DNA of 52,847 bases from Acidimicrobiales bacterium (GCA_047638595.1 JBLIMJ010000005.1:1-52847), one strand, 5' to 3'; positions 4,287-30,298 are shown, counted from the first letter of the stretch. Numbers and translations are program-made. The notes: a model not told the origin generated them from the letters alone.

Positions 4287-4501
4287 AATACAATCTAAAA
4301 AACTGGATGGATTGCGCGATGGACAAGAAAGAAAACCTGAGCGGGGCTTCATGCCCAGCGTGAGAAAGTCTGGGAGACTTTTGCAAGAGGTTGGCTAGTA
4401 TTTTGAAGAATGAAAAATACTGACGACCTGAACAGCTTCTGTAAGAAGGGTCTATTTTCGCAGTCTAACAAAGCAAGTCGCCAGTTTTTTTAGATTGTAT
4501 T
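4287..4501. repeat. Palindromic element whose arms mirror the pilC 3' end and which encloses a structured module
   Basis: AATACAATCTAAAAAACTGG (4287-4306) vs CCAGTTTTTTTAGATTGTATT (4481-4501), one indel; internal 4360-4448 is homologous to 29931-30020. Confidence 0.75.
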
Positions 4502-5698
4502 GGTGAGATTGTAGATTGGCATAAGCACTGACGCCAACAACGTACCAACTCCCAGCCCGAGCATTACAATCATAATCGGCTCAATCAAACCAATAAGTGT
4601 ATCCACCGCATTATCTACTTCACGTCGGTAAAACACTGCAAGAGTACTCAGAATCTCTCCCAAGTTACCAGTTTCTTCCCCTACTTTCGCCATCTGTGCC
4701 AATACCCCTGGTATTTCTGGATATTCAGAAATAGTATCAGCAAAAGACCTTCCTCCTTTTACCTCAATGACAGTGTATTGAATAATCTCTTTATAAATAC
4801 GGTTATCTACCACGTCTGCTGTAACTTCAAGTGCTTTCACCATAGAGATACCACTGGTAAGCATTGTAGAAAGGTTGTCACACAACCGTGTGAGATATAA
4901 CTTACGATTGAGATCACCAAGATAAGGGATGGAAATCTTCAGACTATCCATAGTGTATTTACCGACTTCAGTTTGAAGAAAACGCCATATACCAAATCCT
5001 GCACCTGCTACAAGTACAAATAAAATTGCAATATAGTCTGTTAGGAATGAAGACATACCAATAACGATTTTTGTATAAATAGGAAGTTCTTGACCTGACT
5101 CAGTTAGAATTTTTGCAATTTTTGGAATAACTAATGTGAGCATCAGACCCATTACTACAAAGAACGTTCCGACCACAAATGCAGGGTAGACCATGGCGTT
5201 TCGTGCTTTGCTAATCAACTCATACTGGCGGTCAAGGTAGTCAGCCAGGAATGAGAAAGATTTTTCCAAAGAGCCTGTTTCTTCTCCAGAACGAACCATA
5301 CTGATATAAAAATTTGAAAAAACATCTGGGTGTGAACTCAAAGAACGAGAAATAGAACTTCCTGCCTGCAACTCGTCTGCGACTGTTCCTAGTACCTTTC
5401 TCATTTGTGGATTTTCAGCTTCTGCTGCAAGAAGTCTAAAAATACGCAATGCAGAAACTTGCGCAGAAAACAATGTGGACATCTGGCGGGAAAGTATCAC
5501 GACTTCCTTGTGAGAAATAGACTGGAACCAGTTGATTTCAAGATTGAGCAACGACGATTTCTCGTCAACTTGATCAATCGAGATGACTGTGTATCCTTCT
5601 TTTTGCACTCGGGAAATTGCAGCATCCACCCCAGACGCTTCAACAACACCTTCGCGCGAAGTGTTGTGTGAATCGATTGCTTTGTAATTAAATAACAT
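4490..5698 (-). CDS. pilC: Type IV pilus inner-membrane platform protein (PilC/GspF)
   Basis: Two GspF repeats, GEETG motifs, YP and EP motifs, 402 aa. Confidence 0.93.
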   Translation of the reverse strand: MLFNYKAIDSHNTSREGVVEASGVDAAISRVQKEGYTVISIDQVDEKSSLLNLEINWFQSISHKEVVILSRQMSTLFSAQVSALRIFRLLAAEAENPQMRKVLGTVADELQAGSSISRSLSSHPDVFSNFYISMVRSGEETGSLEKSFSFLADYLDRQYELISKARNAMVYPAFVVGTFFVVMGLMLTLVIPKIAKILTESGQELPIYTKIVIGMSSFLTDYIAILFVLVAGAGFGIWRFLQTEVGKYTMDSLKISIPYLGDLNRKLYLTRLCDNLSTMLTSGISMVKALEVTADVVDNRIYKEIIQYTVIEVKGGRSFADTISEYPEIPGVLAQMAKVGEETGNLGEILSTLAVFYRREVDNAVDTLIGLIEPIMIVMLGLGVGTLLASVLMPIYNLTNTI

Positions 5699-5710
5699 AT
5701 ATTAGATGTA

Positions 5711-6781
5711 CTACATTAATCGTTCGAGTCCCACTGGATTAACTGAGTATGAGAATGCATTCTCGACAGTAATCTCTCCACGTTTGACTAAATCAAGAAG
5801 TGATCGGTTCATATCAATCATTCCGTGTTCAAGACCTGTTTCAATCAATGACTGAATTTCGTGTGTCCTTCCCTCTCGGACCAAGTTTGCTACTGCTGTA
5901 TTATTTACCATGAGTTCATATGTTGGAACAAGTCCTCCTGATATCCTTGGGACTAATCTCTGTGAGAAAATACCTGCAAGCGAACCTGCAAGCTGTACAC
6001 GAATCTGATCTTGCTGCCCCCCAGGGAATGAGTCGATGATACGATCGATTGTCTGCGCAGCACTATTGGTGTGCAAGGTAGACAATACAAGGTGTCCTGT
6101 CTCTGCTGCAGTAACTGCAGTACTGATAGTTAGAGCATTACGCATCTCACCCACAAGAATCACATCGACATCTTGCCTGAAAATACCATTGAGTGCGCTT
6201 TCGAAGCTTACTGAATCAACACCAATTTCACGCTGATCTACCAGCGCCTGCTTTGGATCGTAAAGATATTCAATAGGATCTTCAATAGTTACAATATGGT
6301 CGGCACGGTTTTGGTTGATATATTCAAGCATCGCCGCCAGCGTCGTTGTTTTACCCTGCCCTACAGGACCCACACAGAGAAAAAATCCTTGTTTTCTTTG
6401 TGCAAAACTCTCGAGAATTGGAGGGAGACCAAGCTCTGCTAGTGTGCGGATTTTATTAGGAATCAAACGTAATGCTATAGCCATCGAACCACTTTGGAAA
6501 AATCCGTTACCACGAAAGCGAATACCGTCAGAATGAGCATAAGAAAAATCTACTTCAAAAATATCTTTGTACTCCTTGAATTTTATATCTGATATTAAAG
6601 CTTTTGCGAAACCTTCAAGATCTTGATCAGTAAGAATTGGTTTTTTAATAAGTGGTATAAGTGACCCCGTTACACGCACAATCGGATGAGACCCAACTGA
6701 TAAGTGTAAATCGGATCCTTGTTCAGTAACAACAATATCAATCAAATCTTTTAATTCTCGTCTGTAATCAACTGTTGCCAT
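5711..6781 (-). CDS. pilT: Pilus retraction ATPase PilT
   Basis: SDLHL, GPVGQGKTTT, TIEDPIE, GEMR, ETGHLVLSTLHT, NLVREG. Confidence 0.93.
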   Translation of the reverse strand: MATVDYRRELKDLIDIVVTEQGSDLHLSVGSHPIVRVTGSLIPLIKKPILTDQDLEGFAKALISDIKFKEYKDIFEVDFSYAHSDGIRFRGNGFFQSGSMAIALRLIPNKIRTLAELGLPPILESFAQRKQGFFLCVGPVGQGKTTTLAAMLEYINQNRADHIVTIEDPIEYLYDPKQALVDQREIGVDSVSFESALNGIFRQDVDVILVGEMRNALTISTAVTAAETGHLVLSTLHTNSAAQTIDRIIDSFPGGQQDQIRVQLAGSLAGIFSQRLVPRISGGLVPTYELMVNNTAVANLVREGRTHEIQSLIETGLEHGMIDMNRSLLDLVKRGEITVENAFSYSVNPVGLERLM

Positions 6782-6784
6782 ATC

Positions 6785-7147
6785 TTATGAAATTAAACTA
6801 TGTACCTTTGTTACAACCTCACTTGGAATAGACTCGGCCTTGATGATATATCCAGCTGCACCAGCTTCTGTTGCAGCCTGTATATCGGTCTGTTCACCTT
6901 GATTAGAAAGGACTATACACTTCGTATTTTCTGCAGTGCTATTTTTCCGAATCTCTATCATAAGCTCGATACCTGACATACCGGGCATCACCATGTCTAA
7001 CAAAATGACGTCGAACACTTCATCAGTGAGAATAGATAACGCTTCGTGACCGTTTTCGCCTACACGAACTTGATCTCCACACTCAGTGAATTTTGTCGCG
7101 TACATATCACGCAAGAACCTATCATCATCAATAAGTAAAATCTTCAT
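6785..7147 (-). CDS. Single-domain response regulator (receiver)
   Basis: LIDDD, LLDMVMPGMSG, GAAGYIIK. Confidence 0.9.
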   Translation of the reverse strand: MKILLIDDDRFLRDMYATKFTECGDQVRVGENGHEALSILTDEVFDVILLDMVMPGMSGIELMIEIRKNSTAENTKCIVLSNQGEQTDIQAATEAGAAGYIIKAESIPSEVVTKVHSLIS

Positions 7148-7156
7148 ATATATGTA

Positions 7157-9004
7157 TTATACTCCAAGTACTTTTGGCGATTGGGGGTTATCGACAGGTT
7201 GTGTGGAAAATGACATATCTTCAGTTTTTATCCCAGATAGATCTTCAGCTTCCTCGACATTGTTATCCAGACCAACTTTGGAACCAAACGCAGTCATCTC
7301 TTCGTAAGGTATAACATGATCTAGTGCTTTAAAAATTGCATCTTCCTTCAATGTGGTAAAACCATTTTCGCGTGCCACATTGTAAATCTCTTCTTCTGAA
7401 CCTCCACTTAAAATAAGCTCTCTGATTCTGTCATTAACCTCAAAAGTTTCCATAACTGCGACACGACCTTTCGTTCCTGTGGTACATCCTGGAGTTGATT
7501 CTGGATGCATCATGGTTTTATTCTTTGGAATACGATCATGATACTGTTTTGGGAGCGTAGAAAATTCTTTATCAATCATTGTTTGCACACTCCCTTCAAT
7601 ATTCATCTCTGTACCCGTATCAGGACATAACCGCCGAGCAAGACGTTGAGCAATTGCCAATTTCAATGTTGGTGCAATCAGGTACGGATCGACTCCCATG
7701 TCGATAAGACGAGGAATTACACCAATGGAGTTATTGGTGTGAATGGTTGAGAATACTAAGTGTCCAGTCAGCGCAGCCTGTATGGCGAGTTGTGCCGTTT
7801 CTTTATCACGAATCTCACCAACCATAATAATGTCTGGATCCTGACGCAGCGCACTTCGCAAACCAGCAGCAAATGTATATCCGATTTCTGGCCTCATTTG
7901 AGACTGACTGACGTCAGCAATATTATATTCTACTGGATCCTCCAAAGAGAGTACGTTTTTTGTTATTTTATCAACTTCAGACAGAATGGTATACAGCGTT
8001 GTTGACTTACCCGAACCAGTTGGACCTGAGATCAGGATAATGCCATATGGTTCTTTCACTACTTCACGTATCACCCCAAGGTGATACGGTGATATCCCTG
8101 TATCCTCCAAACTACTCACACCCCGTTGATTATCTAAAATACGCATAACAACCTTCTCACCGTGATTGGTAGGCAAAATAGAAACACGGAAATCAATTTT
8201 TCGGCCATCGAAAGTTGCGGAAAAACGACCATCTTGTGGTTTACGTTTCTCATCAAGTCGCATTGAGGATAAAATTTTTACGCGTGCGACTGCAGCATCC
8301 TGAACATTTTTGGGTAATTCAAGACTCTTTACCAATTCACCATCAACACGAAAACGAACCACCACCTTTCCCCCCGTTGGTTCAATATGGATATCAGATG
8401 CGCCACCGTCTACTGCATAACGTAAAATAGTTGCAACAATCTTAGTAACAGGAGCGTCTTCCTTAAGGTTGCTTACCTGTTGTTTTGCATCTTGCCCATC
8501 GGTTTCACCTTGCTTTTCAGCAATATCAGCATCAAGTTCGTTTTCAAGCGAATCAAGTGCTTCATCTACTTCACCTGTAAGGGATTCATACACCTGTAAA
8601 GCTTGCTCAAGCTCCTGATCAAGCATAAACACTAACTTGAAGGGTATGTTCTGTTTTGTACTCACAAAGTTGAGTGCTTCGCGTAATTGTAGATTTTCTG
8701 GATCATTCACTGCGACAATAAGTATATTGTCTTCTACCCGTAAGGGAAGTAATCGATAGTGCCGTGCAGATTCTTCTGGAATATAGGCGAGTACTTCACG
8801 GTCAATCGTATCATCGGTAGTTAACTGTTGAGGCGGTATTCCATAATATTCAGCAAAAGTACTGCGCACTATATCTGCAGACACACCAACTTGTGTGAGT
8901 GCTTTTTCATACGAGATTCCTTCTTTTGAAACAGCATTTTCGACATCCACCCTATCTTCCGATGTCAAAGCTCCAGTCTCCACTAATGTGTCGAGTACTT
9001 CCAT
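7157..9004 (-). CDS. pilB: Pilus assembly ATPase PilB/GspE
   Basis: ASDIHIEP, PQDGR, GPTGSGKST, LRQDPD, GEIRD, TGHLVFSTIH. Confidence 0.93.
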   Translation of the reverse strand: MEVLDTLVETGALTSEDRVDVENAVSKEGISYEKALTQVGVSADIVRSTFAEYYGIPPQQLTTDDTIDREVLAYIPEESARHYRLLPLRVEDNILIVAVNDPENLQLREALNFVSTKQNIPFKLVFMLDQELEQALQVYESLTGEVDEALDSLENELDADIAEKQGETDGQDAKQQVSNLKEDAPVTKIVATILRYAVDGGASDIHIEPTGGKVVVRFRVDGELVKSLELPKNVQDAAVARVKILSSMRLDEKRKPQDGRFSATFDGRKIDFRVSILPTNHGEKVVMRILDNQRGVSSLEDTGISPYHLGVIREVVKEPYGIILISGPTGSGKSTTLYTILSEVDKITKNVLSLEDPVEYNIADVSQSQMRPEIGYTFAAGLRSALRQDPDIIMVGEIRDKETAQLAIQAALTGHLVFSTIHTNNSIGVIPRLIDMGVDPYLIAPTLKLAIAQRLARRLCPDTGTEMNIEGSVQTMIDKEFSTLPKQYHDRIPKNKTMMHPESTPGCTTGTKGRVAVMETFEVNDRIRELILSGGSEEEIYNVARENGFTTLKEDAIFKALDHVIPYEEMTAFGSKVGLDNNVEEAEDLSGIKTEDMSFSTQPVDNPQSPKVLGV

Positions 9005-9009
9005 TGCAA

Positions 9010-9297
9010 TTAATTTTTAGCGAACGGATTCTCCTGACCAATAGGTACTGGGATTACTTCAGGTGTCATGTTAATCAATGAAGTAAATCTTTCATCTTCA
9101 AAAAGAACTACCTCTAAATCAATTGCCTCCAAGTTGCTAAGTTTCCTTAGGAACTGCTCAGCACCTGCGTTTTCTTGAGGTGTTACTTCCGTATTCTGTA
9201 ATACTACCTCATCCTTTTTTACATATAAAAAATATCCAATACCCAGCAGGGCAAAAATCCCGAGAAGAATGAGTCCATTTTTAAATAAAGAAGACAT
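9010..9297 (-). CDS. Small pilus-cluster membrane protein (PilP position)
   Basis: N-terminal TM, C-terminal G.ENPF, between the pilO-like gene and pilB. Confidence 0.6.
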   Translation of the reverse strand: MSSLFKNGLILLGIFALLGIGYFLYVKKDEVVLQNTEVTPQENAGAEQFLRKLSNLEAIDLEVVLFEDERFTSLINMTPEVIPVPIGQENPFAKN

Positions 9298-9305
9298 ATA
9301 AGATA

Positions 9306-9923
9306 TTAATTATTTGTATAGATGTATGAGTACGCACGCAGAGTAATCTTGTATTTTGTATCAGGTTCAAGCCCATCAACTGAGCTACCTTGATTGGAAG
9401 ATCCTGATTCACTTGAAGTCTCACCAAATACGAGATCAGTTATCTCGAGAGGATACTGATTTTTCTCCAAAGTTTCTAGAAATACCTTAAACTGTTCGTA
9501 CGTTCCTGAAATATTAATCGAAAAATCTCTATGTTCTAGTGCATCAGGGTCGGGAACCTCTCCTTCAAATACATACTCTCCAGGAGAATCATCTGAATCA
9601 GAACCTTCAGAAGTAAGTTCTTTCACAGTAACGTCACTTTTATTTGCTATTTCTAATAAGGTAGACATGATTGATACTACATCAATTTTCTTGGGGAGAT
9701 ACAGATTCAAAGCTTCTTTGTTCGATAACTTTATCGCCTTTTCATCCTCTACTAACGCTCCAACATCATCATTTAGTTCTTTTGCACTATTAGCATATTC
9801 TGTGTATTTTTCTTTTTCTTTTTGAATGCCCTCTAATTCAAGGAATGTAGGCTTAATATATATCACAACAATAACGATTGATATTATAAAGAGGACTATT
9901 TGTGAAAGTAATTTATATCCCAT
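9306..9923 (-). CDS. pilO: PilO-like protein
   Basis: TM, coiled coil, YLP, GTYEQFKVFLETLE motif; synteny. Confidence 0.75.
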   Translation of the reverse strand: MGYKLLSQIVLFIISIVIVVIYIKPTFLELEGIQKEKEKYTEYANSAKELNDDVGALVEDEKAIKLSNKEALNLYLPKKIDVVSIMSTLLEIANKSDVTVKELTSEGSDSDDSPGEYVFEGEVPDPDALEHRDFSINISGTYEQFKVFLETLEKNQYPLEITDLVFGETSSESGSSNQGSSVDGLEPDTKYKITLRAYSYIYTNN

Positions 9924-9934
9924 ACAAAATAAAG

Positions 9935-10654
9935 TTATTCATCAGAAGTGTTATCTGTTACATCGGCAATACTTGCTTCTGTGGAAGAAGCTGAAACGTC
10001 ACCCTCTTCAGAATCATCAGTTAGCCTATACAAATCAGGATCATATTCAATTTCAGAAATATTCAGTTGCTTACTAATCAAAAAAGTAACTCTGTCTTCT
10101 GCAGTAGTTCCATTAAATTCTTGACTATTATCTAATTCATCTGATGAAGTAAAGTCTACTTCATCAAAAGTAGCATTTTTAAAGAAATCATCTTTACTCA
10201 GCACATCTCGTTGAAACATTGTTGCATTTATCGTGTTAGTGGTAGCAAGCAATTCCAGCACAAGTTGATCTTCTTTATTTTTACCATATGCGAGACCTGT
10301 AATCTGCACCGACTGTGCGGTCATAGATTCTAGTGCTGCGAAAATTCGCGAAACAGCGACCTGTCCATAGAGTAATCCAGCAGCCTTATCTATCCGAGCG
10401 TCAAACTCTCGAACTGCCTCTAGTCCTGCCTCATTGAAATTGGCACGTTCGTCTGCTAAACGAGTTTTCTCTTCCTCTAGCTGGTTATTAAGAATCTGCG
10501 TGTACCCAAACACCACAGCTGAGGAAACCAGAGACATAAAGAAAAGCACCATTGATATATAGGTAAACACATAAACCTTATGTACAGTTCGAGGTTTTAC
10601 CTGGCCACGTGTAGGTTGTTTAGGAATAAATGATGTGCCTTGGGGTTTTTCCAT
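9935..10654 (-). CDS. PilN-like protein
   Basis: TSFIPK N-terminus, TM, coiled coil; immediately downstream of pilM. Confidence 0.65.
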   Translation of the reverse strand: MEKPQGTSFIPKQPTRGQVKPRTVHKVYVFTYISMVLFFMSLVSSAVVFGYTQILNNQLEEEKTRLADERANFNEAGLEAVREFDARIDKAAGLLYGQVAVSRIFAALESMTAQSVQITGLAYGKNKEDQLVLELLATTNTINATMFQRDVLSKDDFFKNATFDEVDFTSSDELDNSQEFNGTTAEDRVTFLISKQLNISEIEYDPDLYRLTDDSEEGDVSASSTEASIADVTDNTSDE

Positions 10655-10714
10655 ATCTTATTATTATACAATGAAACAAAAACAATACTTGACAATCTCT
10701 GTGGACAGTTATTG

Positions 10715-11806: not shown

Positions 11807-11851
11807 AACTTTGTATCAATTCTAACATTAGTTTGCCGTATACTTAAAGAC

Positions 11852-12929: not shown

Positions 12930-12983
12930 ATTGACAGTATACCAAATACCCACCAGACATGAGATACTACAGTCCCACTATAT

Positions 12984-14492: not shown

Positions 14493-14586
14493 TGAAGCAT
14501 TTTTAGAAATTAAATGAAGGCAGGAGTATAACGAATATTCTAAATTTATGTCCCGATTTGTTCTGCCCTTGGGCACATCGCTGTAC

Positions 14587-14867
<281 letters not shown>

Positions 14868-16456: not shown

Positions 16457-16457
16457 G

Positions 16458-20320: not shown

Positions 20321-20339
20321 ATTAAATATTTATTTAAAG

Positions 20340-20369
20340 AAAAAGCACTACAATCATGTAGTGCTTTTT
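20340..20369. terminator. Intrinsic terminator
   Basis: AAAAAGCACTACA-ATCA-TGTAGTGCTTTTT. Confidence 0.75.
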
Positions 20370-20755
20370 CTAGTTGAGCTAATTAGAAACTAAAACGATA
20401 GTTCCTCGTGCTCGCTCGATGATGCGGGGACTAAGTGATACTCACCAGTATGGGTCATCCGATACTAAGTATTTAGTCCTGCGACTTAAAATAAGCTTCT
20501 GGGTCTACATTTCCTTCATTCAAGACAGATTCATAAATTTCCTGTTCTGATACCTTCAGATTATTTCTTTCCTATGCTGCTTGAACTCAAGAAAGGTGTG
20601 CGATTAGGGTGATTATTTACGACTGGTAATGTGTGCACACATTACCAAAATGTTTTGACTTGTGTGCAGAAGAGTTGTTCTTTTGAAATAGACTTGACTA
20701 ATCTAGTCCTTTTTCTATACTTAATTTACGACTTAACCAATGGAGGTATAAGGAA

Positions 20756-21133
20756 ATGTTTAGAAAGTTCTTTTCAGTACTAACGGCCAGTTTTGTTTTG
20801 CTGGCAATGGTGCAAACAGCTAACGCTGCCGGATTGTACGAGGGCCAGTCTTTTTCCGGCGGGTGGAACCTAACATATAATCGCCAGGGTGACATCGATA
20901 TTGGTGACAGTAGCGATGGTACCTTTCTCGATTTGAGGAGTACCTCACGTTATTGTGTGCACAAAGGTGCTGGCTATTCGACCATGAATCGGTACATCAG
21001 GAGCAACTATCCAGACAATGTAAGGTGGTCTGTGGATGAAATTTGCAACGATGGCTATGTCCGAATTTGTGTTAGCGCATCTTGGGGCGCTGTTGCCTGT
21101 TCAACCTACTCTAATCATGGTTGGAAGGATTAA
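20756..21133 (+). CDS. Secreted hypothetical protein with 4 Cys
   Basis: Signal peptide ending ANA, upstream GGAGG, downstream hairpin with T-tract at about 21140-21170. Confidence 0.7.
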   Translation: MFRKFFSVLTASFVLLAMVQTANAAGLYEGQSFSGGWNLTYNRQGDIDIGDSSDGTFLDLRSTSRYCVHKGAGYSTMNRYIRSNYPDNVRWSVDEICNDGYVRICVSASWGAVACSTYSNHGWKD

Positions 21134-21388
21134 GGAACACCCTGGGCGATATATTCGTCCAGGGCTTTTTTGTCGTGTGTAACTTTCCACTAACTAAAAG
21201 CACACCTTCAAGTTACTAATTATTTTGTATCGCTTTGCTCATAAAATACTAAGTACTTGCAGACTCACCTCGCGACTCGTCACCCCAGAGAAGGGTGAAT
21301 CGTACCGCTCATAAAATAAGTAAGTACTCTCGACCCCGACTCGACTCTCTTCTTCTCTCAGCTCAGAAATTCACATGAGCCTCCGTCT

Positions 21389-21784
21389 TTCAAATCCCGA
21401 CATCTCTCACAAACGCAAAAGACCCTGAAAGCGAGAGCTTTCAGGGTCTGCGTTGTGTGGAGAGTAAGGGATTCGAAGCTTACAGCTTCAGTCTGCCTTT
21501 TGGACATATTACTTCGCTTCGCTCGTAATCTGTCACAAAAGCCTTTCGAATCCCTTACTCTCGCGCAAATACAACAAAACCCAAAGACATGCTTTGGGTT
21601 TTGGTATTTGCGGAGAGTAAGGGATTCGAACATTACATGTTCAGTACACCTTTTGGCTATATTATTTCGCAAGCTCATAATCTAGCTCAAAAGCTCTTCG
21701 AATCGTGCAACGCTTTTCTTAAGAAAAGCTGCACCCTTACTCTCCGCATATACAAAAACGCCCCAAAGGGCGTGATTGTATATG
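21389..21784. repeat. Array of alternating direct and inverted copies of the tRNA-Ser(ACU) 3' end separated by hairpin modules
   Basis: GGAGAGTAAGGGATTCGAA at 21459 and 21612; inverse at 21545 and 21697-21747 (interrupted); degenerate inverse at 21389. Confidence 0.9.
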
Positions 21785-21871
21785 CGGAGAGTAAGGGATT
21801 CGAACCCTTGGAACCGTTTAAAGTTCGGCAGTTTAGTAAACTGCTGCTTTCGACCACTCAGCCAACTCTCC
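21785..21871 (-). tRNA. tRNA-Ser(ACU)
   Basis: GGAGAGT/ACTCTCC acceptor, G73, long variable arm, anticodon arm GCAGT-TTACTAA-ACTGC, GGTTCGAATCC T-arm; CCA not encoded. Confidence 0.88.
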
Positions 21872-22110
21872 AATATTCTATTGTCGGGAAGTTGGCTTCG
21901 GGTCGAACAAGTTCGGTCCACTTCCCTGCGGTCGGATGATATGCCTCCCAGGCATATCATCCACTCAAGGTCCAGCGATTTTCTCAATGGGAGAAAAAAT
22001 CGGGACATAAATTCATAATATAGCCTTTGTCTATTTATTCATTCACCAACTCTCCATTTTTCAACCTCAGCAGTATAGCAATTCTGTATGAAAACTAAAG
22101 CTTTGTGTGA

Positions 22111-22429
22111 CGGCGACGAGAGGAATTTTTCTCTCTCTACGAGGGCAGTATAGGTTGTCGATATTTCTTGCGAAATATCTGGCAACCTTTTCGAATCCTC
22201 TCGTCTCTCTCAAACGTAAACATGGCGAATGCATACGCATCCGCCATGTACGTTTGCGGAGACGAGAGGATTCGAACATTACATGTTCAGTCTGCCTTTT
22301 GGACATATCCTACCTTCGGTCGAATCTGTCACAAAAGCCTTTCGAATCGTGCAACGCTTTTCTTAAGAAAAGCTGCACCTCTCGTCTCCGCAATAGAAAA
22401 AACACCCCAGTGGGTGTATTTTCCTATTG
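22111..22429. repeat. Array of alternating direct and inverted copies of the tRNA-Ser(GCU) 3' end separated by hairpin modules
   Basis: GCGGAGACGAGAGGATTCGAA at 22256, degenerate copy at 22111; inverse at 22190 and 22341-22391 (interrupted). Confidence 0.9.
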
Positions 22430-22515
22430 CGGAGACGAGAGGATTCGAACCTCCGGGGGCTTAACACCCCACTTCCTTAGCAAGGAAGCACGATAGACCA
22501 CTCTGACACGTCTCC
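22430..22515 (-). tRNA. tRNA-Ser(GCU)
   Basis: GGAGACG/CGTCTCC acceptor, G73, anticodon arm CTTCC-TTGCTAA-GGAAG, long variable arm. Confidence 0.93.
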
Positions 22516-22638
22516 AGATATTTCACTACTCACTTCGGCCAGTAGAATACCACATTGTGTAATGGAGTTCTACAGTTGACTTATGGTTCATAATTTGAGA
22601 GATTACAAACAGAGAAATTAGTCATACAGGAGGTCCTT

Positions 22639-23163
22639 ATGGACATGACAGAACTTCAAGAACACTGGGCGGGAATACTTGCAGAAGAATACAGCAAGCG
22701 TACTGAATTACAAAAGTATGACATGGACATTCTCATTGAATTTTCCAAAGCAACTGTCCTTGGGGCATGGCCTGAAATTGTCGATCTTCCAGATTGTAAA
22801 GATAATACTCATTGCGTATCGGTCACACCAAACGCAATGACCAATGTACTGAGTTGCATCATCGGATCTGATCCAAATATAAAACAGCACACGGGCAGGG
22901 ATGCAACTGCGCAAACTGGTACTTTTGTAGCCGGTGTATGTGGCGCAGCGATTGGCCATGTAGTTGGCGGAACCTTAATGGGGATTGACCCATTTGGATT
23001 TTCTACCTTTCTTCCAATCGGAGTCTCAGCAATTATTACGCTGTCGCTTCCTGAGCCACTACGTAGTCGTGCAAAAGTACTTATGACTGGTCACAGGGCT
23101 GACAATGGCAAAGAGCTTTTCAAACCAGCTGAGATTCTACTGGTACGTATACCCACCACATAA
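22639..23163 (+). CDS. Hypothetical membrane protein
   Basis: 174 aa, AGGAGG SD, Gly-rich hydrophobic hairpin. Confidence 0.6.
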   Translation: MDMTELQEHWAGILAEEYSKRTELQKYDMDILIEFSKATVLGAWPEIVDLPDCKDNTHCVSVTPNAMTNVLSCIIGSDPNIKQHTGRDATAQTGTFVAGVCGAAIGHVVGGTLMGIDPFGFSTFLPIGVSAIITLSLPEPLRSRAKVLMTGHRADNGKELFKPAEILLVRIPTT

Positions 23164-23430
23164 AAGAGCAACAAGCTCGGCGACCGTCTGGTCTCCGGGC
23201 GTTTCGTTTGTATACCGTACTACAAGTGACTACGTTACATATTTCCCACGGTCTATAAAATTTGTTCTCACTTGATGTTCTTCGTCATCAGCGTCTATAA
23301 AATGCATGGGTAGTGTCTTCCATTAATTCCCATTGAGTGTGACACCTCAAAACGTGCAGTACTCTCATAATATGCATCCAGTGATAGCGCTATAGCTTTT
23401 TCATGCTTTACAGGTTCGCCTTCCATGTTT

Positions 23431-24579
23431 CTATTTAACCACACTTGCAACTTTCTTTGCTAGATCTTTAGTCATAATGCCTGGGATGATTTCTTTTGAT
23501 GTTGGCTTGGCAACTAAACCTGCAATCTTCTTAGCAGCAGCCAACTTCATTGCTTCAGTTATATGAGGAACACTCTTATCCAATGCCCCACGGAAGATTC
23601 CTGGGAAGACCAACGAGTTATTCACCTGATTAGGGTAGTCACTTCGTCCTGTGGCCACTACGGCAGCTCCTGCTTGCAATGCATCTTCTGGTTTAATCTC
23701 TGGAATTGGATTTGCCAGTGCAAAAACAATAGCCTGTGGGGCCATTTTTTCTATGTGGTGCTTTGAGATTGTCCCAGGGCCGGACACACCAATAAGAACA
23801 TCGGCGCCATCAACAGCATCAAGAACCTCTCCTTTTACTTTTTGTAAGTTTGTTATCTTAGCCAATTCAGTTTTGTATGACGTCAAACCTGAGCGTCCTT
23901 CATAAATAATGCCGTTACTATCAGTCACAATGATTTCTTGTATACCTGCCTCAACGAGCAAGAGAGTGACCGCCCTCCCTGCTGCTCCAGCCCCTACAAT
24001 CACCACACGCAACTTAGTAAATTTCTTCCCCACTACTTTTGCTGCGTTAATCAGACCCGCAAGTACCACAATAGCTGTACCGTGTTGATCATCATGAAAA
24101 ACAGGAATATCGAGCTCTGCTTTGAGTCGTTCTTCAATCTCAAAACAACGAGGTGCCGCAATGTCTTCAAGGTTGATTCCTCCAAAGCCTGGGGCAATAG
24201 CTTTTACTATCGAGATGATTTCTTCAGTGTCCTGTGTATCAAGCACAATCGGAAACGCGTCTACCCCTGCCATCTCTTTGAAAATTGCACACTTCCCTTC
24301 CATCACTGGTAATGCCCCAAGTGGACCGATGTTGCCAAGACCAAGTACAGCTGAACCATCTGAAACTACGGCAACGGTATTGCCTTTGATGGTGTACTTC
24401 CGTGCATCTGCTGGGTGTTTTGCTATATGTGAGGATACGGCTGCAACCCCTGGGGTATACATGGTACTCCAGTCGTCTTTAGTCTTTAGCTTTCCTTTAC
24501 TGATTACTTCTAATTTCCCCTGCATTTTTTTATGACTTGTCAGTGCCATTTGATCGTAATCTTTTTTCTTTGTTGTCAT
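23431..24579 (-). CDS. NAD(P)-dependent malic enzyme
   Basis: YTPGVA, DGSAVLGLGNIG, PVMEGK, INLEDI, FHDDQHGT, GAGAAG, NQVNN. Confidence 0.93.
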   Translation of the reverse strand: MTTKKKDYDQMALTSHKKMQGKLEVISKGKLKTKDDWSTMYTPGVAAVSSHIAKHPADARKYTIKGNTVAVVSDGSAVLGLGNIGPLGALPVMEGKCAIFKEMAGVDAFPIVLDTQDTEEIISIVKAIAPGFGGINLEDIAAPRCFEIEERLKAELDIPVFHDDQHGTAIVVLAGLINAAKVVGKKFTKLRVVIVGAGAAGRAVTLLLVEAGIQEIIVTDSNGIIYEGRSGLTSYKTELAKITNLQKVKGEVLDAVDGADVLIGVSGPGTISKHHIEKMAPQAIVFALANPIPEIKPEDALQAGAAVVATGRSDYPNQVNNSLVFPGIFRGALDKSVPHITEAMKLAAAKKIAGLVAKPTSKEIIPGIMTKDLAKKVASVVK

Positions 24580-24805
24580 AAACTGTAGTACGTAGCGATT
24601 TAGTATTTAATACATGTAGTATACGTTACTGCACCAAGCTCAGCAAAAATCACAATAATCCACAGAGTGTGTTAATACCCACTATCCTTTTTAATTAACT
24701 TTGTTTGGAATAATTAGTTTTTACGTATCTTTGTCAGAAAAAGGAGGGGTAAAAGAAAACAGGGAGCGAAAAAAATCGCCCCCTGGTCGGGATAGTATCC
24801 CTTGT

Positions 24806-25471
24806 TTAGTTCAGTACACCTGCTTCTGCAAACGCGTCTTCCAACGCTGTTGTTGTCATTGGTTTTTCCGGTGCTGCCGAAGCAACCAACCTCAAACGTG
24901 GTTGGGCAGGAGGCTTATCCAAAGACTTCTGCGTCACTGTGCGTGCTGTGAGTTTTTTGACGGCCGGTTTTTTGACGGCGGGTTTTTTGGCAGCAGGTTT
25001 CACTGGCGGAACATTTTTCACATCTTCGTGAAGTGAAAGATTGATTCCGCATATACCTTCCTTTCCCTCTGCGACAGTGAAATCGAGGGTTGCACCCTCG
25101 ATAATCTGGCTACGCAGCGACTGAACCACTCCGCCGACATGGATGAACATATCCAGATGATCTTTCACTGTCAGGTGGCAAAAACCTTTCTCAGGCGCAT
25201 ATTTTACAGTACCAGAGGCTTTAGTCCCCACAGCGAGGGCAGTTAAAGGTTTTTTCGTAGGTTTGCCCTTTTTTTTCTGTTCCTCTACTACAACGGACAC
25301 CAGTCGTTGATGCAACGCCTCTGCAGCTTTATAGGCTGGTGTTTCCACCATTGATGGGAAAGATTCAACTGACTCTTCCAATGTCTTTCGTATAACATTT
25401 ATCAGTCCAACATTTTCCACCGTTGCTTGCAGTAGTGTCTGCTTTTTTGTTTCGTTTGTACCATTTGTCAT
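24806..25471 (-). CDS. Divergent cold-shock (OB-fold) domain protein with Lys/Ala/Pro-rich tail
   Basis: GTVK...EKGFCHL...DMFIH...EGATLDFTV..GKEG; KPAAKKPAVKKPAVKK; AAGGAGG SD. Confidence 0.65.
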   Translation of the reverse strand: MTNGTNETKKQTLLQATVENVGLINVIRKTLEESVESFPSMVETPAYKAAEALHQRLVSVVVEEQKKKGKPTKKPLTALAVGTKASGTVKYAPEKGFCHLTVKDHLDMFIHVGGVVQSLRSQIIEGATLDFTVAEGKEGICGINLSLHEDVKNVPPVKPAAKKPAVKKPAVKKLTARTVTQKSLDKPPAQPRLRLVASAAPEKPMTTTALEDAFAEAGVLN

Positions 25472-25582
25472 TTTAGGTCCCTCCTTGGATTATGACATGA
25501 AAATTCTGTTTGCAACAGTACAATATTTAATAGTAATTGTCAATAAACATACCCGAGCCTCTATTTCTGTTATTATGTCTCT

Positions 25583-27889
25583 ATGAAACTCACCGACAAA
25601 CTTGCTGATCATTTCCGTGTTGATGTACCCCATCAGAAGGCATTGAAACGACTGCGTATTGAGACGGTTGAGGAACTCTTGTACCACCTCCCTGCACGGT
25701 ATGAGGATATTTCTGAAGTACAGTCCGTTGGAGGTTTAGTAAAAGACCAAGAAGCGATTGTGTATGGACAACTCTCGGGTCTCAAGAGCCGAAAGGCATG
25801 GAAAAGTAAGCGTCCTATTGCTGAAGGGTTTATTGAAGATGGTTCAGCAAAGATAAAAGTGATGTGGTTTAACCAGCCTTATCTGGCGAAAATGTATGCT
25901 GACGGTATGTATGTAAAAATGGTTGGCAAAGTAACTGGCTCTGAAGGAAAACTATACATCGCAAACCCTGAAGTAGAAAAGCTTGATTCATTACCCATCG
26001 ACCGCCATGATTCCATTTTTAAAGGAACTGATGCTGAGATTAATGACACCCTGTACCCTGTCTATCGTGAGAGTAAAGGAGTAACGAGCAAATGGTTTTA
26101 TCACACAGCACTGAAGTGCTTTGAAAAAAAGGTACTTGAAACACTTACAGACCCCATCCCAAAAGATATTCTTGACCGATACCACTTACCTGAACTTGCT
26201 ACTGCACTGGTATGGGTCCATTCACCGAAAAAAGCTGAGCATGCACAGAGCGCGCGAAAACGCTTTGCATTTGAAGAGGTTTTTTACATCCAAGTTCAAA
26301 AAGCACTTGAGCGTGCGCAGGTGAGTGCCGCTACAACGTATCAGTTCAACACCACTCCTACCCACGTGAAAGAGTTTACCGAACGATTCCCTTTTGAGCT
26401 CACTGCCTCACAAAATAAATCAATCAACGAAATCATTACTGACTTCAATGGCAATCATGCCATGTCTCGTTTACTTGAGGGTGATGTAGGAAGCGGGAAG
26501 ACTGCGGTTGCGGCAACTACTGCGTATGCAGTAGCAACTTCGCGCCCTCCTGAGGGACTCAAAAGTTCTTACGCTAACCTTGAAACTTTGGGAGACGATT
26601 CGAGGCGTGGAGAACGTGACGAAGGAGGCGTGGGTCACCACGATGACAGAGGCACAGAGGCTCCACAACAAAGAAGGGTCCCCAAAGTTTCAAGGTTAGA
26701 CTTTGGCAATCTGCAGGTTGCGTATATGGCACCAACAGAAATTCTCGCAAAACAACACTTTGAAAGTTTCATCGAATACTTCCACCACCTTCCTATTCAA
26801 ATAGGTCTCATTACCGGTTCTGGTTGTATGAAGTACCCAAGCAAGACCGACCCTACTAAACCAACAAAGATAAGTAAGGCCCAGCTTTTAAAGTGGGTTA
26901 AAAATGGCGAGGTGCCAATTGTGATTGGCACACACTCTCTTATATATAAATCGGTAGAGTTTAAACACCTCGCGTACGTCATCATTGACGAGCAACATCG
27001 TTTTGGTACTCGACAACGGTCGGCTCTAGCAAAAAAGGACGAGCGTATGCCTCACTTACTTTCAATGACCGCAACCCCTATCCCCCGCACCTTAGCATTG
27101 ACCATTTATGGGGACCTCGACATCACCTTGCTCGACGAAATGCCGTCTGGTAGAAAACCAATTATCACTGAACTTGTTGGTCCTGGTCAGTCAAAGAAAA
27201 TGTATGACCACGTACGTAGTGAGTTACGTGACGGGAGACAGGCTTATGTCATCTGTCCGCGCATTGAGGAGCCCGACCCTGACAAAGCAACTGCGCTGCG
27301 GTTAAAGAGTGTAACTGCCGAAGCAGAACGTCTGCAGAAAGACGTGTTTCAGGAATTCTCAATCGGTATTCTACACGGGAAAATGAAACCAGCCGAAAAA
27401 GACGCCATGATGCTGAAGTTTACTAACCATGAGATAGACATACTCGTAGCGACCTCTGTGGTAGAAGTGGGGGTAAATGTCCCAAACGCAACTAACATAA
27501 TCATCGAAGGTGCTGAACGTTTTGGTCTTTCTCAGTTACACCAACTTCGTGGGCGCGTGGTACGCAGCAATCATCAAGCATATTGCTTCGCGGTAACTGA
27601 CAGCAAGTCAGAGAAAACACGTGACCGCTTAAAGGCACTTAAAACTGCTAAAAATGGTTTTGAACTTGCCGAGCATGACCTCAACTTCCGTGGAAGTGGA
27701 GAACTCTACGGAGCGAAGCAGTCAGGCCTTACCGACCTCGGTATGGAAGCCATTAAGAACCTCAAGCTTGTGGAAGCGGCACGTGCCGAAGCACGTGCCT
27801 TAGTTGCAGATAGCTCCGACCTTTCCCGTGACTTCCCCTTGATTCACCACAAAGTCACCCAGACACTGGAAAGTTTGCATATGGAGTAA
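25583..27889 (+). CDS. recG: ATP-dependent DNA helicase RecG
   Basis: RLLEGDVGSGKT, APTEILA, DEQHRFG, MTATPIPRT, QLHQLRGRV, RGSGE. Confidence 0.95.
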   Translation: MKLTDKLADHFRVDVPHQKALKRLRIETVEELLYHLPARYEDISEVQSVGGLVKDQEAIVYGQLSGLKSRKAWKSKRPIAEGFIEDGSAKIKVMWFNQPYLAKMYADGMYVKMVGKVTGSEGKLYIANPEVEKLDSLPIDRHDSIFKGTDAEINDTLYPVYRESKGVTSKWFYHTALKCFEKKVLETLTDPIPKDILDRYHLPELATALVWVHSPKKAEHAQSARKRFAFEEVFYIQVQKALERAQVSAATTYQFNTTPTHVKEFTERFPFELTASQNKSINEIITDFNGNHAMSRLLEGDVGSGKTAVAATTAYAVATSRPPEGLKSSYANLETLGDDSRRGERDEGGVGHHDDRGTEAPQQRRVPKVSRLDFGNLQVAYMAPTEILAKQHFESFIEYFHHLPIQIGLITGSGCMKYPSKTDPTKPTKISKAQLLKWVKNGEVPIVIGTHSLIYKSVEFKHLAYVIIDEQHRFGTRQRSALAKKDERMPHLLSMTATPIPRTLALTIYGDLDITLLDEMPSGRKPIITELVGPGQSKKMYDHVRSELRDGRQAYVICPRIEEPDPDKATALRLKSVTAEAERLQKDVFQEFSIGILHGKMKPAEKDAMMLKFTNHEIDILVATSVVEVGVNVPNATNIIIEGAERFGLSQLHQLRGRVVRSNHQAYCFAVTDSKSEKTRDRLKALKTAKNGFELAEHDLNFRGSGELYGAKQSGLTDLGMEAIKNLKLVEAARAEARALVADSSDLSRDFPLIHHKVTQTLESLHME
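26574..26699. mobile_element. 126-bp in-frame palindromic insertion in recG
   Basis: Perfect 19-bp terminal inverted repeat CTAACCTTGAAACTTTGGG / CCCAAAGTTTCAAGGTTAG; exactly 42 codons; lies between helicase motifs I and Ia. Confidence 0.75.
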
Positions 27890-27960
27890 TCTTTATTGAC
27901 GAATAATATTTTTTCTTTATAGTAGGTTACAGAAGTACACTGATTTACCAGGAGGTATGA

Positions 27961-28380
27961 ATGTTACAAGAAAGAACAAGTATAAAACTACGCTCCCATA
28001 TACAGGGCCTGAAAATAACAACGAACTTTGTTTCTCAGAATTATTATTCTGGTCAACCTCATGAGCCCTATTTCGAGAACTGGCATCTTTGGTTCCGTGT
28101 GATACACGATGGGAGTAATCCGTTTCTTCCTTTTGGTGCAAACAAAGGTTGGAAATTCGCGTTTATGCACGCAAAAGTGGAAGACATTCCTCATTTTCTT
28201 CAAGAGGAGACGCCGAAGGATTATATTTTTATCTTGCACCCGCATTCAACACTGAAAGCTGCTGTTGTCACTGACAAATATACAGAAGCTCCCGGGGTAA
28301 CTGTGTTTTTTCGCACCTCAGGATATGACCAATCATCACCATGGTTCAACGAACTGCTCTTTCCTTACCAATGTGCATAA
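27961..28380 (+). CDS. Hypothetical protein (GSNPF motif, paralog 1)
   Basis: AGGAGGT SD; similar to the downstream ORF. Confidence 0.6.
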   Translation: MLQERTSIKLRSHIQGLKITTNFVSQNYYSGQPHEPYFENWHLWFRVIHDGSNPFLPFGANKGWKFAFMHAKVEDIPHFLQEETPKDYIFILHPHSTLKAAVVTDKYTEAPGVTVFFRTSGYDQSSPWFNELLFPYQCA

Positions 28381-28400
28381 GCACCGAAAGGAGGTTATAC

Positions 28401-28811
28401 ATGTTACCAGTCATTCCGCATCACAATAGTGAGGTCGATGGATTTTCCATTGAAATCACCCCCTATGGTGAAAATCCATCAAAGAAAAAAATAGGTATTA
28501 AGTACTTCAGACCAGGTTTTCTAGAAATTCTCGTTATCAATAACGGAAGTAACCCTTTTTGTCCTGAAACCGGATACTGGGAAGCACGAATTCTGACAAT
28601 TAATACCGGTACGCCATTCAATATTGCGGAATCTACAGACTTCCTCGTCATTGAACTTTCACCTGATGAGATACTTCGGTCTATTCTAGTCAGAGAGATG
28701 TACCTAGAGGAGTATGGGCTAGGCGTTTGGATGTTTGTTGTCTACAAATCAATTATCGAAAAAACTTCGCATACAAACATATACCCTATTTGGAACTATG
28801 ACTCTGCTTAG
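28401..28811 (+). CDS. Hypothetical protein (GSNPF motif, paralog 2)
   Basis: AAGGAGGT SD before ATG 28401; followed by hairpin AACCGGCCA-CAT-TGGCCGGTT and T-tract. Confidence 0.6.
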   Translation: MLPVIPHHNSEVDGFSIEITPYGENPSKKKIGIKYFRPGFLEILVINNGSNPFCPETGYWEARILTINTGTPFNIAESTDFLVIELSPDEILRSILVREMYLEEYGLGVWMFVVYKSIIEKTSHTNIYPIWNYDSA

Positions 28812-28895
28812 AATTCTAGTTCCCAACCGGCCACATTGGCCGGTTTTTCTTTTACATACAAAAAGTGGCGGCCAGTGTTGGCCACCACGTTCATC

Positions 28896-29129
28896 TTACT
28901 GCATCCACACAGGGTATGCTCCCTTATCACGAGCTTCATCGAATGCATAGGTATGCGGCCCACACACAATCGCAAGCAACCCTCCAGCAGAATCAACAAC
29001 TGTATAAAACTTTTGGGTATCACCATGCATATGAATTTTTCTTTCTTTTTCACTTATGGAACGTACGAAAACAGTGTGATCTGGAAAATTAACCGGGGGT
29101 ATTAAAGAAGTACCTTTTGCTTTAGTCAT
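28896..29129 (-). CDS. Small hypothetical protein
   Basis: 77 aa, GAGGAGG SD, downstream GC-rich hairpin at about 28865-28888. Confidence 0.45.
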   Translation of the reverse strand: MTKAKGTSLIPPVNFPDHTVFVRSISEKERKIHMHGDTQKFYTVVDSAGGLLAIVCGPHTYAFDEARDKGAYPVWMQ

Positions 29130-29733
29130 CTTCTATTCCTCCTCTGCTTTAGACTTATCTAAGCATCTAAAGATACTGATGGCAAGGTTGTTGTTTTATT
29201 TTCCCTAATATAAAACCGATAAGAACCGAGCGAGAGGTTCTACAGAATAGCTATGACAGAAAAATAATTGTGTGCACATCAATGTAGAAAAAGTACCTGT
29301 GAACACCCATATTGCAACCACAATAAGCAATAAAAAATAGCCGCTCTGAAGCGGCTACAGTTCCATCACACCAGAGTTTTCCTTTATGGTACCGGCGAAT
29401 CATCAGCGTAGCTTGGGATTACTACCTAAGCAGTCACATCAAATATTTAACCAGTAAACACTCTGTCGAGATAACACCTCACTTTCTCAGCGTTTTTGCT
29501 GCTTTGTTACATTGCTCGCTTTAAATACTTGTTTCATGGGGTGTATCTCCTTGATGAAGGGTTAGTAGGCACATTCGTGTGTACCTAATCAGAATATACT
29601 CTAACAAAACAAATCTGTCTACTTAAAACTGACAATAAACTCTTTAACGGAAAACAACAACATGGTCCTATATGCAATTGAGTATGCAGCAATTTCACGG
29701 TATAGTGTTGGACGTTGGCAAAGAATTCTTTGT

Positions 29734-29806
29734 CCGCCTGTAGCTCAGTTGGTAGAGCGCGAAGCTTATACCTTCGTGGTCCTAGGTTCGAGTCCTAGCG
29801 GGCGGA
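29734..29806 (+). tRNA. tRNA-Ile(UAU)
   Basis: CCGCCTG/CGGGCGG acceptor, A73, D-arm AGCTCAGTTGGTAGAGC, anticodon arm CGAAG-CTTATAC-CTTCG, T-arm CTAGG-TTCGAGT-CCTAG. Confidence 0.9.
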
Positions 29807-29830
29807 CAAAGGATTTTTTCTATTGGGGCA

Positions 29831-30059
29831 AGCTCAATTGGTAAGCATAGCTTTCTTGGATTGCATTCGAGAAAAATGAAAGTAAACTTTCACTTTGTCT
29901 CTCATTTGTCCAAGTAGAGCACGAAGCTTCCGTCTTACAGACGCAGTATACCTTGTCGATATTTTTCGTAACCTCAAAATATCAGGCAAGGTCTTGCGAC
30001 AGTCCCCCAGACTGTCTCACCTTCGTGGTCCTAGGTTCGAGTCCTAGCGGGCGGACAAA
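29831..30059 (+). pseudogene. Interrupted second copy of tRNA-Ile with structured insertions in the D-loop and anticodon loop
   Basis: AGCTCAATTGGTA [~73 bp] GAGCACGAAGCTT [~89 bp] ACCTTCG...GGACAAA; 30019-30059 identical to 29770-29810; 5' acceptor strand lost. Confidence 0.8.
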
Positions 30060-30062
30060 CGC

Positions 30063-30104
30063 AAAGAAAAACCCTTCAAACTAAAGTCTGAAGGGTTTTT
30101 CTTT
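30063..30104 (+). terminator. Intrinsic terminator-like hairpin
   Basis: AAAGAAAAACCCTTCA...TGAAGGGTTTTTCTTT. Confidence 0.7.
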
Positions 30105-30125
30105 AGCAACTGCCCTGCGGCAGTT

Positions 30126-30298
30126 GCGGCGTTTGTCCGCGACGAAGCGATGTTTACGAGCAAGTCAGGGGCAAGAGCGGCGTTTGTCCGCGACGAAGCG
30201 ATGTTTACGAGCAAGTCAGGGGCAATGCGGCGTTTGTCCGCGACGAGATGATGTTGCCTTGGCAACCATCGAGTCAGGGACAAGTGCGAAGCTAGTCC
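30126..30298. repeat. Tandem repeat with 50-51 bp unit (2 near-identical copies, 1 diverged)
   Basis: GCGGCGTTTGTCCGCGACGA starts at 30126, 30177 and 30227. Confidence 0.9.

Follow-up and report, generated by a model that had tools for sequence, protein, structure and literature searches.

We analysed a stretch of DNA of 52,847 nt (GCA_047638595.1, JBLIMJ010000005.1:1-52847), hereafter the window, which is the entire contig C5 of genome G000 (927,357 bp in 43 contigs, 41% G+C, 91% completeness). The subject is a family of structured repeats at the 3′ ends of tRNA genes and of pilC, the outer arms of which mirror the end of the neighbouring gene. The original prediction, made from the window alone, had described gene 3′ ends that reappear inverted downstream, together with members of one hairpin-module family, at four loci (the pilC 3′ end, tRNA-Ser(ACU), tRNA-Ser(GCU) and a tRNA-Ile copy). 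We confirmed this: the six matches in the window of R1, a covariance model described below, are all at these loci. The source organism had been guessed to belong to the Parcubacteria, and this guess is sound because Patescibacteria, Paceibacteria, Kaiserbacteria and Nomurabacteria are among the close relatives of one window protein. The RNA genes of the window are tRNA-Ser(ACU), tRNA-Ser(GCU), tRNA-Ile(UAU) and one tmRNA, and a search of the window with Rfam at gathering scores gave nothing beyond these tRNAs and the tmRNA. At loose thresholds, RtT was the sole non-trivial Rfam match; the microRNA matches were generic long hairpins.

The two tRNA-Ser genes and the features behind them are as follows.

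21784-21871, minus strand: tRNA-Ser(ACU) gene.
21734-21797, unstranded: palindrome of the tRNA-Ser(ACU) 3′ end, trailer, terminator-like hairpin and mirror.
21610-21747, minus strand: element A1, with mirror arm (21734-21747), H0, type A P2, P3 and a 22-nt direct copy of the end of the tRNA (21610-21631).
21575-21603, minus strand: terminator-like hairpin module, common to other tRNA loci.
21459-21562, minus strand: element A2, with 18-nt perfect arms and without H0.
21140-21449, minus strand: terminator-like hairpin (21420-21449) and decayed type C modules (core 21212-21257).
22429-22515, minus strand: tRNA-Ser(GCU) gene.
22378-22442, unstranded: palindrome of the tRNA-Ser(GCU) 3′ end, trailer, terminator-like hairpin and mirror.
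22256-22391, minus strand: element B1, with arms cognate to tRNA-Ser(GCU) and an interior common to A1 and A2.
22115-22207, minus strand: element B2, with a type B core and a decaying 3′ arm; an orthologous copy is present in the related genome G059.

In the sense of the tRNA, a terminator-like hairpin comes first behind the gene and the elements follow. Each element is built, in order, from a 5′ arm, an optional H0, P2, the junction GWACWG, P3 and a 19-22-nt direct copy of the tRNA, and long terminator-like palindromes separate the units. The outer helix is not part of the shared repeat: one of its strands repeats the 3′ end of the neighbouring gene directly, and the other is the exact reverse complement of that end. 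At tRNAs, the arms start from the T loop, take in the acceptor strand and continue into the trailer. In the tRNA-Ser elements, the 5′ arm is the reverse complement of the T-stem and the acceptor 3′ strand, and the direct copy extends from the T loop to one base beyond the discriminator. The last 14 nt of tRNA-Ser(ACU) and its trailer form a 93% palindrome with 30-nt arms (21734-21763 and 21768-21797), within which lies a terminator-like site (21773-21758); additional 18-nt perfect inverted copies and 19-22-nt direct copies were found downstream. The corresponding arms of tRNA-Ser(GCU) are 24 nt at 96% (22378-22401 and 22419-22442), again with 18-nt perfect inverted copies and with one 22-nt direct copy. 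Between the two loci, 38 nt (21697-21734 and 22341-22378) are identical, so that the interior is common and the arms follow their own tRNA. The folds of A1, A2 and B1 are far more stable than those of shuffled sequences (z -8.47, -8.38 and -9.36, respectively), and A1 scored 100.6 bits with R1.

The serine tRNA with anticodon ACU (A34), which adjoins tRNA-Ser(GCU), is conserved in several congeners (L015, L019, L020, L035 and L042). A serine tRNA with A34 is unusual among bacteria.

The origin of the arms was examined at informative positions, where the 5′ strand of the tRNA differs from the exact complement of its 3′ strand by a G-U pair or a mismatch. Of 12 such positions in T stems, 5 had a downstream arm complementary to the 3′ strand, as had 3 of 10 in acceptor stems; none of the 22 had an arm that followed the tRNA 5′ strand. 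The script mis-registered two tRNAs, one of them among the 8 mirror cases. Moreover, the mirrors at the tRNA-Ser loci continue through the trailer and the terminator, which gives the arms of 24-30 nt. Exact complementarity at G-U and mismatch sites and mirroring beyond the tRNA therefore point to a DNA-copying process; such exact templated mirrors speak against both selection for pairing in the RNA and an origin from a complete tRNA gene. We also rejected an origin of the elements as internally deleted copies of the tRNA gene, since the 5′ arm is complementary to the 3′ strand and trailer and does not follow the 5′ strand or leader.

Perfect hairpins are in excess throughout G000. There are 217 hairpins with a stem of at least 16 bp, as compared with 1, 1 and 0 in shuffled sequences; their stems are 16-30 bp and their loops 3-14 nt, and most resemble bidirectional terminators. 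In 20 of the 217, the stop codon of an open reading frame (ORF) is within the proximal arm. Some long hairpins, such as C6:40523-40579, extend over both stop codons of a convergent gene pair. Among 40 congeners, the large subunit of exonuclease VII (Exonuc_VII_L) was found in 1 and the C-terminal domain of SbcD (SbcD_C) in none. Loss of ExoVII and SbcCD may favour palindromes and template switching.

The mirrored ends are a feature of most tRNA genes in G000. A direct copy of the gene's own tail (at least 10 of the last 24 nt, at most 800 nt downstream) is present for 26 of 34 tRNAs; for 22 of these the copy is 15 nt or longer, and downstream of 23 of the 34 there is an inverted copy of 10 nt or longer. 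When only copies of at least 10 of the last 15 nt were counted, which excludes the shared T loop, the tRNA's own tail was found as a direct copy for 21 of 33 tRNAs and inverted for 10 of 33, and the tail of another tRNA for 0 of 33 in both orientations. Together with the 38-nt identity described above, this result bears out the claim that the arms are host-specific and the interiors common to the loci. A pattern (regular expression) search detected 63 cores, 37 of which lie at most 700 nt downstream of a tRNA on the same strand (0.78 expected). With R1, 82 copies were found in G000 at E ≤ 0.01, 150 of 403 candidates having been scored and the seeds matching by construction. Among these 82 copies, 35 lie at most 800 nt downstream of a tRNA in the tRNA sense and 47 do not; 4 of the 47 are antisense near a tRNA, and the others lie between genes, in either orientation with respect to the adjacent ORFs. 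Perfect tandem units are found behind tRNA-Thr(GGU), tRNA-Gly(UCC), tRNA-Leu(GAG), tRNA-Cys and tRNA-Met. Thus, the proposed covariance-model scan recovered the family, and the four loci stood while their scale, which is genome-wide and clade-wide, had been understated.

R1 was built from an alignment of 29 elements from the window and other genomes. Its window matches are at 4378-4474, 21450-21562, 21603-21714, 22105-22207, 22249-22358 and 29905-30014. The interior is a three-way unit of the optional H0, P2 (of several sequence types), the GWACWG junction and P3 with a GUA or UGUAA loop. RNAalifold gave 12 pairs for P2 and 5 for P3, with compensatory changes at 17 of 17 pairs; 92.1% of cells were paired as compared with 57.2% in shuffles, and the covariation score was 0.79 as compared with 0.19 in shuffles and at most 0.22 with slid partners. 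The invariant unpaired bases are GAA ahead of P2, AC-G in the junction and the GTA loop. Cores of the hammerhead, twister and pistol ribozymes gave no match in a comparison by eye only, which does not amount to a test.

The closest known architecture is that of RtT RNA (RF00391) of Escherichia coli. The original prediction had taken the E. coli tyrT repeats to carry tRNA 3′ ends without an inverted arm. This was wrong: in the Rfam RtT consensus, the 3′ end of the unit is a copy of the tRNA-Tyr 3′ end and pairs with a 5′ arm, and a precedent for the architecture therefore exists. Like the elements described here, RtT units lie in tandem directly behind tRNA genes in the tRNA sense and have a branched fold (about 130 nt) closed by the pairing of copy and arm, and the loop motif GAGCGAAGCGA is common to both. 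The interior helices differ. In E. coli, four RtT units lie beside tyrT and tyrV and rttR is annotated as a small RNA; in the stretch of K-12 examined the units belong to one tRNA operon, whereas in G000 most tRNAs have a cognate unit. The two best RtT scores were 23.9 bits (A2, the sole weak match in the window) and 14.3 bits, as compared with a gathering score of 45 bits and 132.9-137.5 bits for the E. coli units, and only two RtT matches at E ≤ 10 were found in the whole genome. Homology with RtT was considered, and the reciprocal search did not confirm it (R1 on the E. coli units gave at best 4.6 bits, E 0.76). A search of the full texts in one library of papers found no description of tRNA-linked cognate-arm repeats in Patescibacteria.

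The other two loci of the window, at pilC and tRNA-Ile, contain the following features.

4287-4306, unstranded: left outer arm, mirror of the last pilC codons and stop (16 nt at 100% and 10 nt).
4360-4448, plus strand: H0-P2-P3 module of 89 nt, antisense to pilC and situated in an older hairpin's loop.
4481-4501, unstranded: right outer arm, overlapping the pilC stop codon (4490-4492) and last codons.
29734-29807, plus strand: tRNA-Ile(UAU) gene.
29905-30059, plus strand: 5′-truncated tRNA-Ile copy, the final 41 nt of which (30019-30059) are a perfect direct repeat of 29770-29810.
29930-30018, minus strand: 89-nt H0-P2-P3 module, antisense, in the anticodon loop of the tRNA-Ile copy.
30063-30104, unstranded: terminator-like hairpin of 20 bp.
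30119-30270, plus strand: three tandem units of 50-51 nt, each opening with a 12-nt mirror of the end of the tRNA-Ile copy and its trailer.

At pilC, a perfect 16-nt inverted repeat (4287-4302 and 4486-4501) is extended by a 10-nt repeat (4297-4306 and 4481-4490) to about 20 nt in total with one bulge, and the R1 match has an E-value of 2.2e-6. In several congeners, too, the outer arms of the pilC element include the stop codon and last codons. The arm sequence varies by species and the mirroring is kept (G000, G059, G056 and G045-type). At the tRNA-Ile copy, the R1 match is on the minus strand (E 4.8e-10). The 12-mer GCGTTTGTCCGC occurs three times in the tandem array and is complementary to 30051-30062. 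By eye, these units are like the 5′ half of type C cores, and a similar sequence is found behind tRNA-Lys(UUU) on contig C24. Between tRNA-Ile and its truncated copy lies a segment (29811-29860, GGGGCAAGCTCAATTGGTAAGC...) that resembles part of the 5′ half of another tRNA. The UAU anticodon suggests that AUA is decoded without a lysidine-modified CAU tRNA.

Within the genus, 38 of the 40 genomes gave R1 matches; the copy number per genome was between 0 and 68 when at most 95 candidates were scored in each. Two congeners that are 99% complete have 0 and 1 copy; the family is therefore dispensable. An even draw of the class gave an R1 match in 7 of 150 other genomes under stricter filters. G027, from another family of the order, has the same architecture with a covarying P2, and direct tail copies are present for 11 of the 35 tRNAs examined there. 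At the tRNA ends the family persists with fast turnover, and it blooms in some genomes. For example, between G000 and G059 tRNA-Ser(GCU) is identical and the distal element common, and the proximal unit and the terminator module differ; newer units are nearest the tRNA. In G003, the 3′ arm matches the present tRNA and the 5′ arm an older variant. The 3′ arms of many relatives have decayed.

To explain these observations, we favour a clade-wide modular repeat family of RtT architecture, the arms of which are both written and maintained through template switching at replication and gene conversion with the tRNA alongside; we give this explanation about an even chance of being right. As part of it, and with the same middling confidence, the family would be one of modular structured repeats of about 90-190 nt that extends across Patescibacteria/Paceibacteria. 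Most likely, slips in DNA copying act on a spreading repeat family and no new dedicated machine is at work. Thus, where the original prediction proposed an element or a templated process that copies its target, the templated mirrors (8 cases versus 0) and the insertions described below stand, and a dedicated novel system is not supported.

In the proposed mechanism, fold-back template switching at replication would extend and perfect hairpins adjoining gene ends. Selection would protect the gene side and permit only the unconstrained side to be overwritten, so that the flank would come to mirror the gene end. The direct copy would be kept identical to the tRNA by unequal crossing-over or gene conversion at the locus, and conversion or unequal exchange between direct repeats may also amplify the tandem units; tandem copies and one lagging arm were seen. 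The interiors would be spread and homogenised by insertion into hairpin loops, several cases of which are given below, and by ectopic conversion. Template switching in replication has been described as creating perfect stems in one event and as repairing and expanding them (PMC8794818; PMC13100816). Monttinen and Loytynoja (2022, PMC8794818) describe one-event reverse-complement copying with perfect stems and multi-base ‘compensatory’ changes, features that match the exact mirrors and the excess of long hairpins in G000; the events described there are scattered in RNA genes, whereas those proposed here are systematic at gene ends and tied to a repeat family. Generic template switching suffices for the mirroring, and a dedicated target-copying enzyme is not needed.

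Several points weigh against this explanation. Generic template switching explains neither the enrichment of modules behind tRNAs nor their bias to the tRNA sense. No mobilising enzyme for the modules was identified in G000. A statement linking exonuclease loss to template switching was sought in PMC7202029 and not found there. The unpaired bases of the junction and loop, which do not vary between families, and the covariation of P2 and P3 fit a functional RNA or the recognition site of an unknown enzyme equally well. G-U exceeds A-C in P3 stems (10 to 2 in G000 and 5 to 3 at the relatives' loci), which is a weak hint of selection on an RNA in the tRNA sense. At the orthologous tRNA-Ser site, an R1 module is present in 17-18 of 29 relatives' loci, 12 of which are seeds of R1. 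Finally, RNA sequencing runs containing the stretch were searched for and none was listed.

Some of these points would be expected if the elements were functional RtT-like RNAs, transcribed with or beside the tRNA and forming a minihelix like the cognate acceptor and T arm. Such an RNA may take part in the processing of the tRNA, in termination or in insulation, or it may mimic tRNA 3′ ends and act as a decoy for the enzymes that read them. We regard this alternative as possible but doubtful. The sense bias at tRNAs (35 versus 4), the invariant unpaired bases, the strong covariation, the very stable folds (z -8.4 to -9.4), the G-U excess and the occupancy of the tRNA-Ser site all fit it, as do the presence of the architecture in another family of the order (G027) and the precedent of RtT with its annotated small RNA rttR. 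However, a terminator-like hairpin stands ahead of every element (8 sites versus 1.1 expected), and a promoter scan gave 3 sites versus 1.9 expected, none of them upstream of any element. Moreover, complete congeners with 0 or 1 copy exist, 47 of the 82 copies are not behind tRNAs and lie in both orientations relative to ORFs, many 3′ arms in relatives have decayed, and the mirrors continue with perfect Watson-Crick pairing into the trailers. Perfect mirrors in trailers are not a requirement of RNase P or RNase Z substrates.

In addition to the templated arms, the modules behave as insertions. Three insertions could be delimited, in the anticodon arm of the tRNA-Ile copy, in a P2 loop and in the pilC backbone, and further module copies lie within P2 loops of other elements. 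The proposed comparison with an empty orthologous locus was possible at pilC: the G059 ortholog has the hairpin backbone and lacks the 89-nt module. The 89-nt insertions have sharp edges and neither terminal inverted repeats nor a target duplication. The left flanks of the three delimited insertions differ (GAAGGT, GGAGG and CCAGC) and share no common target word. A PATE derived from IS200/IS605 would be expected to lie 3′ of a fixed tetra- or pentanucleotide and to accompany a TnpA of that family; the Y1 genes of G000 are RAYT-like, and a different small element does lie 3′ of TGTAA, as described below. MITEs and PATEs resemble the elements in being small, non-coding and structured, with variable copy number and nested insertions. 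MITEs differ in carrying their own terminal inverted repeats and making a target duplication; here neither was seen and the arms are locus-specific, matching the neighbour. Insertion at TTCGAA with a 6-bp target duplication was also considered and rejected because the flanks at TTCAAG-type T loops are inverted (CTTGAA...TTCAAG), not direct.

The insertions bear on the original reading of a dedicated, new non-autonomous mobile element that acquires target-derived arms during insertion. Common interiors with perfect locus-specific mirror arms, the sharp-edged 89-nt insertions, the copy-number blooms and the strong targeting to tRNAs (37 of 63 cores versus 0.78 expected) would all follow from such an element. 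Nevertheless, we consider it unlikely: the three delimited insertions went into existing hairpins and created no new arms, terminators free of modules also mirror gene ends, the two arms can be out of step (G003) and no candidate enzyme was found. A further reading is put forward only as a tentative idea: mobile or self-propagating elements of a new class would have P2-GWACWG-P3 as their active core, home to tRNA 3′ ends and other hairpins and have their arms written from the target at insertion. Each copy would thereby be a cognate ‘shadow’ of its tRNA, and the arm-bearing RNA may also mimic the acceptor and T arm.

The enzymes that might move the modules were sought in G000. RVT_1 and a TnpB domain were not found in this genome (91% complete), and a single tyrosine recombinase (a Phage_integrase match) is on contig C7, away from the elements. 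There are two RAYT-like Y1_Tnp genes (C1:59760-60428 and C8:189-872; 38.3 and 28.4 bits, above the Pfam cut-off), which would suit a further alternative, namely hairpin elements like REP or PATE that are moved as single-stranded DNA by Y1 HUH (RAYT-like) transposases. Like REP, BIME and REPIN sequences, the elements form high-copy intergenic mosaics of hairpin modules, and hairpins are present at both module ends. Y1_Tnp is found in 26 of 41 relatives; among genomes G000-G024, it is present in 9 of 9 with at least 23 R1 matches and in 8 of 16 with fewer, counts that come from kin and are not independent. However, each Y1 gene lies between copies of its own hairpin (TTACAGGGGACAC... and AAGTCATCCGATGACTT), unlike the modules. 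The hairpin of the C1 gene, TTACAGGGGACAC-CGR-GTGTCCCCTGTAA, occurs at about 7 sites (C1, C3, C10 and C16) as a small, separate REP-like family, and that of the other gene, on C8, is confined to its gene. In a REPIN system with a RAYT, the conserved palindrome of the repeat itself would flank the RAYT gene; the modules described here do not flank the Y1 genes. Furthermore, the RAYT equivalog NF047646 gave 37.9 bits against a cut-off of 80 (the C1 protein alone was scanned), G003, G006 and G013 have modules without a Y1 match, and REP sequences conserve their fixed stems, whereas in the present elements conservation is in the interior and the outer stems are local. With their own hairpins, the weak equivalog score and a copy-number association confounded by kinship, the link to RAYT is not supported, and movement by Y1 transposases is quite improbable. 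The proposed co-occurrence with Y1/RAYT was seen as an association in high-copy genomes, kinship being a confounder, and not in the three genomes that have modules without Y1, and the suggestion of a machine based on an HUH nuclease or a reverse transcriptase was not borne out.

In at least 5 modules, the P3 loop contains a second small element (ACAAGTTTTCT...GAAAGTAA, about 75-100 nt) placed immediately 3′ of TGTAA, and the element's own end is GTAA; its position is a point in favour of movement by Y1 enzymes. Its sites are C2:19194-19299, C13:9852-9947, C9:15514-15561, C17:12073-12111 and C14:9043-9088, with a fragment in the window at 29856-29905. A site preference such as 3′ of TGTAA is typical of the IS200/IS605 family.

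The direct copies also recall the attachment (att) duplications of islands that integrate at tRNAs, in which a direct repeat likewise covers the T loop to the 3′ end. The block from T loop to tRNA end is the classic att block. The elements might accordingly be remnants of serial site-specific integration at tRNA 3′ ends, that is, attL/attR duplications or miniature cis-mobilisable elements, and the position of newer units closest to the tRNA agrees with this. In G013, an insert of about 840 nt with an ORF (L018, 1588-2428) lies between tRNA-Ser(GCU) and an element with arms that still match this tRNA; the insert has the appearance of a small island that integrated there, at the end of the tRNA. 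Yet about two dozen tRNAs would each require an element with its own matching att site, copies exist away from tRNAs, the only tyrosine recombinase is unlinked to the elements, and integration does not predict a mirror arm. The units, at about 140-190 bp, also have no linked integrase. We therefore regard integration remnants as very improbable.

Since the arrays are repetitive, we also considered an assembly artefact. Logan contigs from two DNA runs, the best-matching of which may be the source sample, break in the arrays, and no listed piece bridges 21489-21841 or 22298-22485; in addition, many matches in relatives are at contig ends. On the other hand, pieces with 0 differences cover 20700-21488, 21842-22297, 22486-29760 and 29781-30155. 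More than 20 tRNA loci of G000 have this architecture. Outside G000, independent assemblies, some of them with only 1-2 contigs, show it for 37 of the 39 other congeners and for other families. An artefact is thus given almost no weight. Because many matches lie at contig ends, the family can be said to break Patescibacteria assemblies. It also creates pseudo-tRNA fragments and can mislead scans for att sites, terminators and non-coding RNAs.

If replication template switching with gene conversion is indeed the explanation, the family would be a natural, large-scale case of such switching, in which mirrors of gene ends are written in step with evolving tRNAs. Likewise, the enigmatic tyrT/RtT repeats of E. 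coli would gain a broad structural counterpart in an unrelated phylum, and the origin and possible function of RtT would therefore become testable by comparison.

One further observation concerns a segment of the window between the tRNA-Ser and tRNA-Ile loci. At 23940-24263, the summed contig depth in the two DNA runs was about 17-fold (X1) and at least 24-fold (X2) above that of neighbouring bins, and many loose contig ends lie inside this stretch, at 24068-24109. The segment is probably the part of the ORF at 23431-24579 that is common to many other organisms in the samples.

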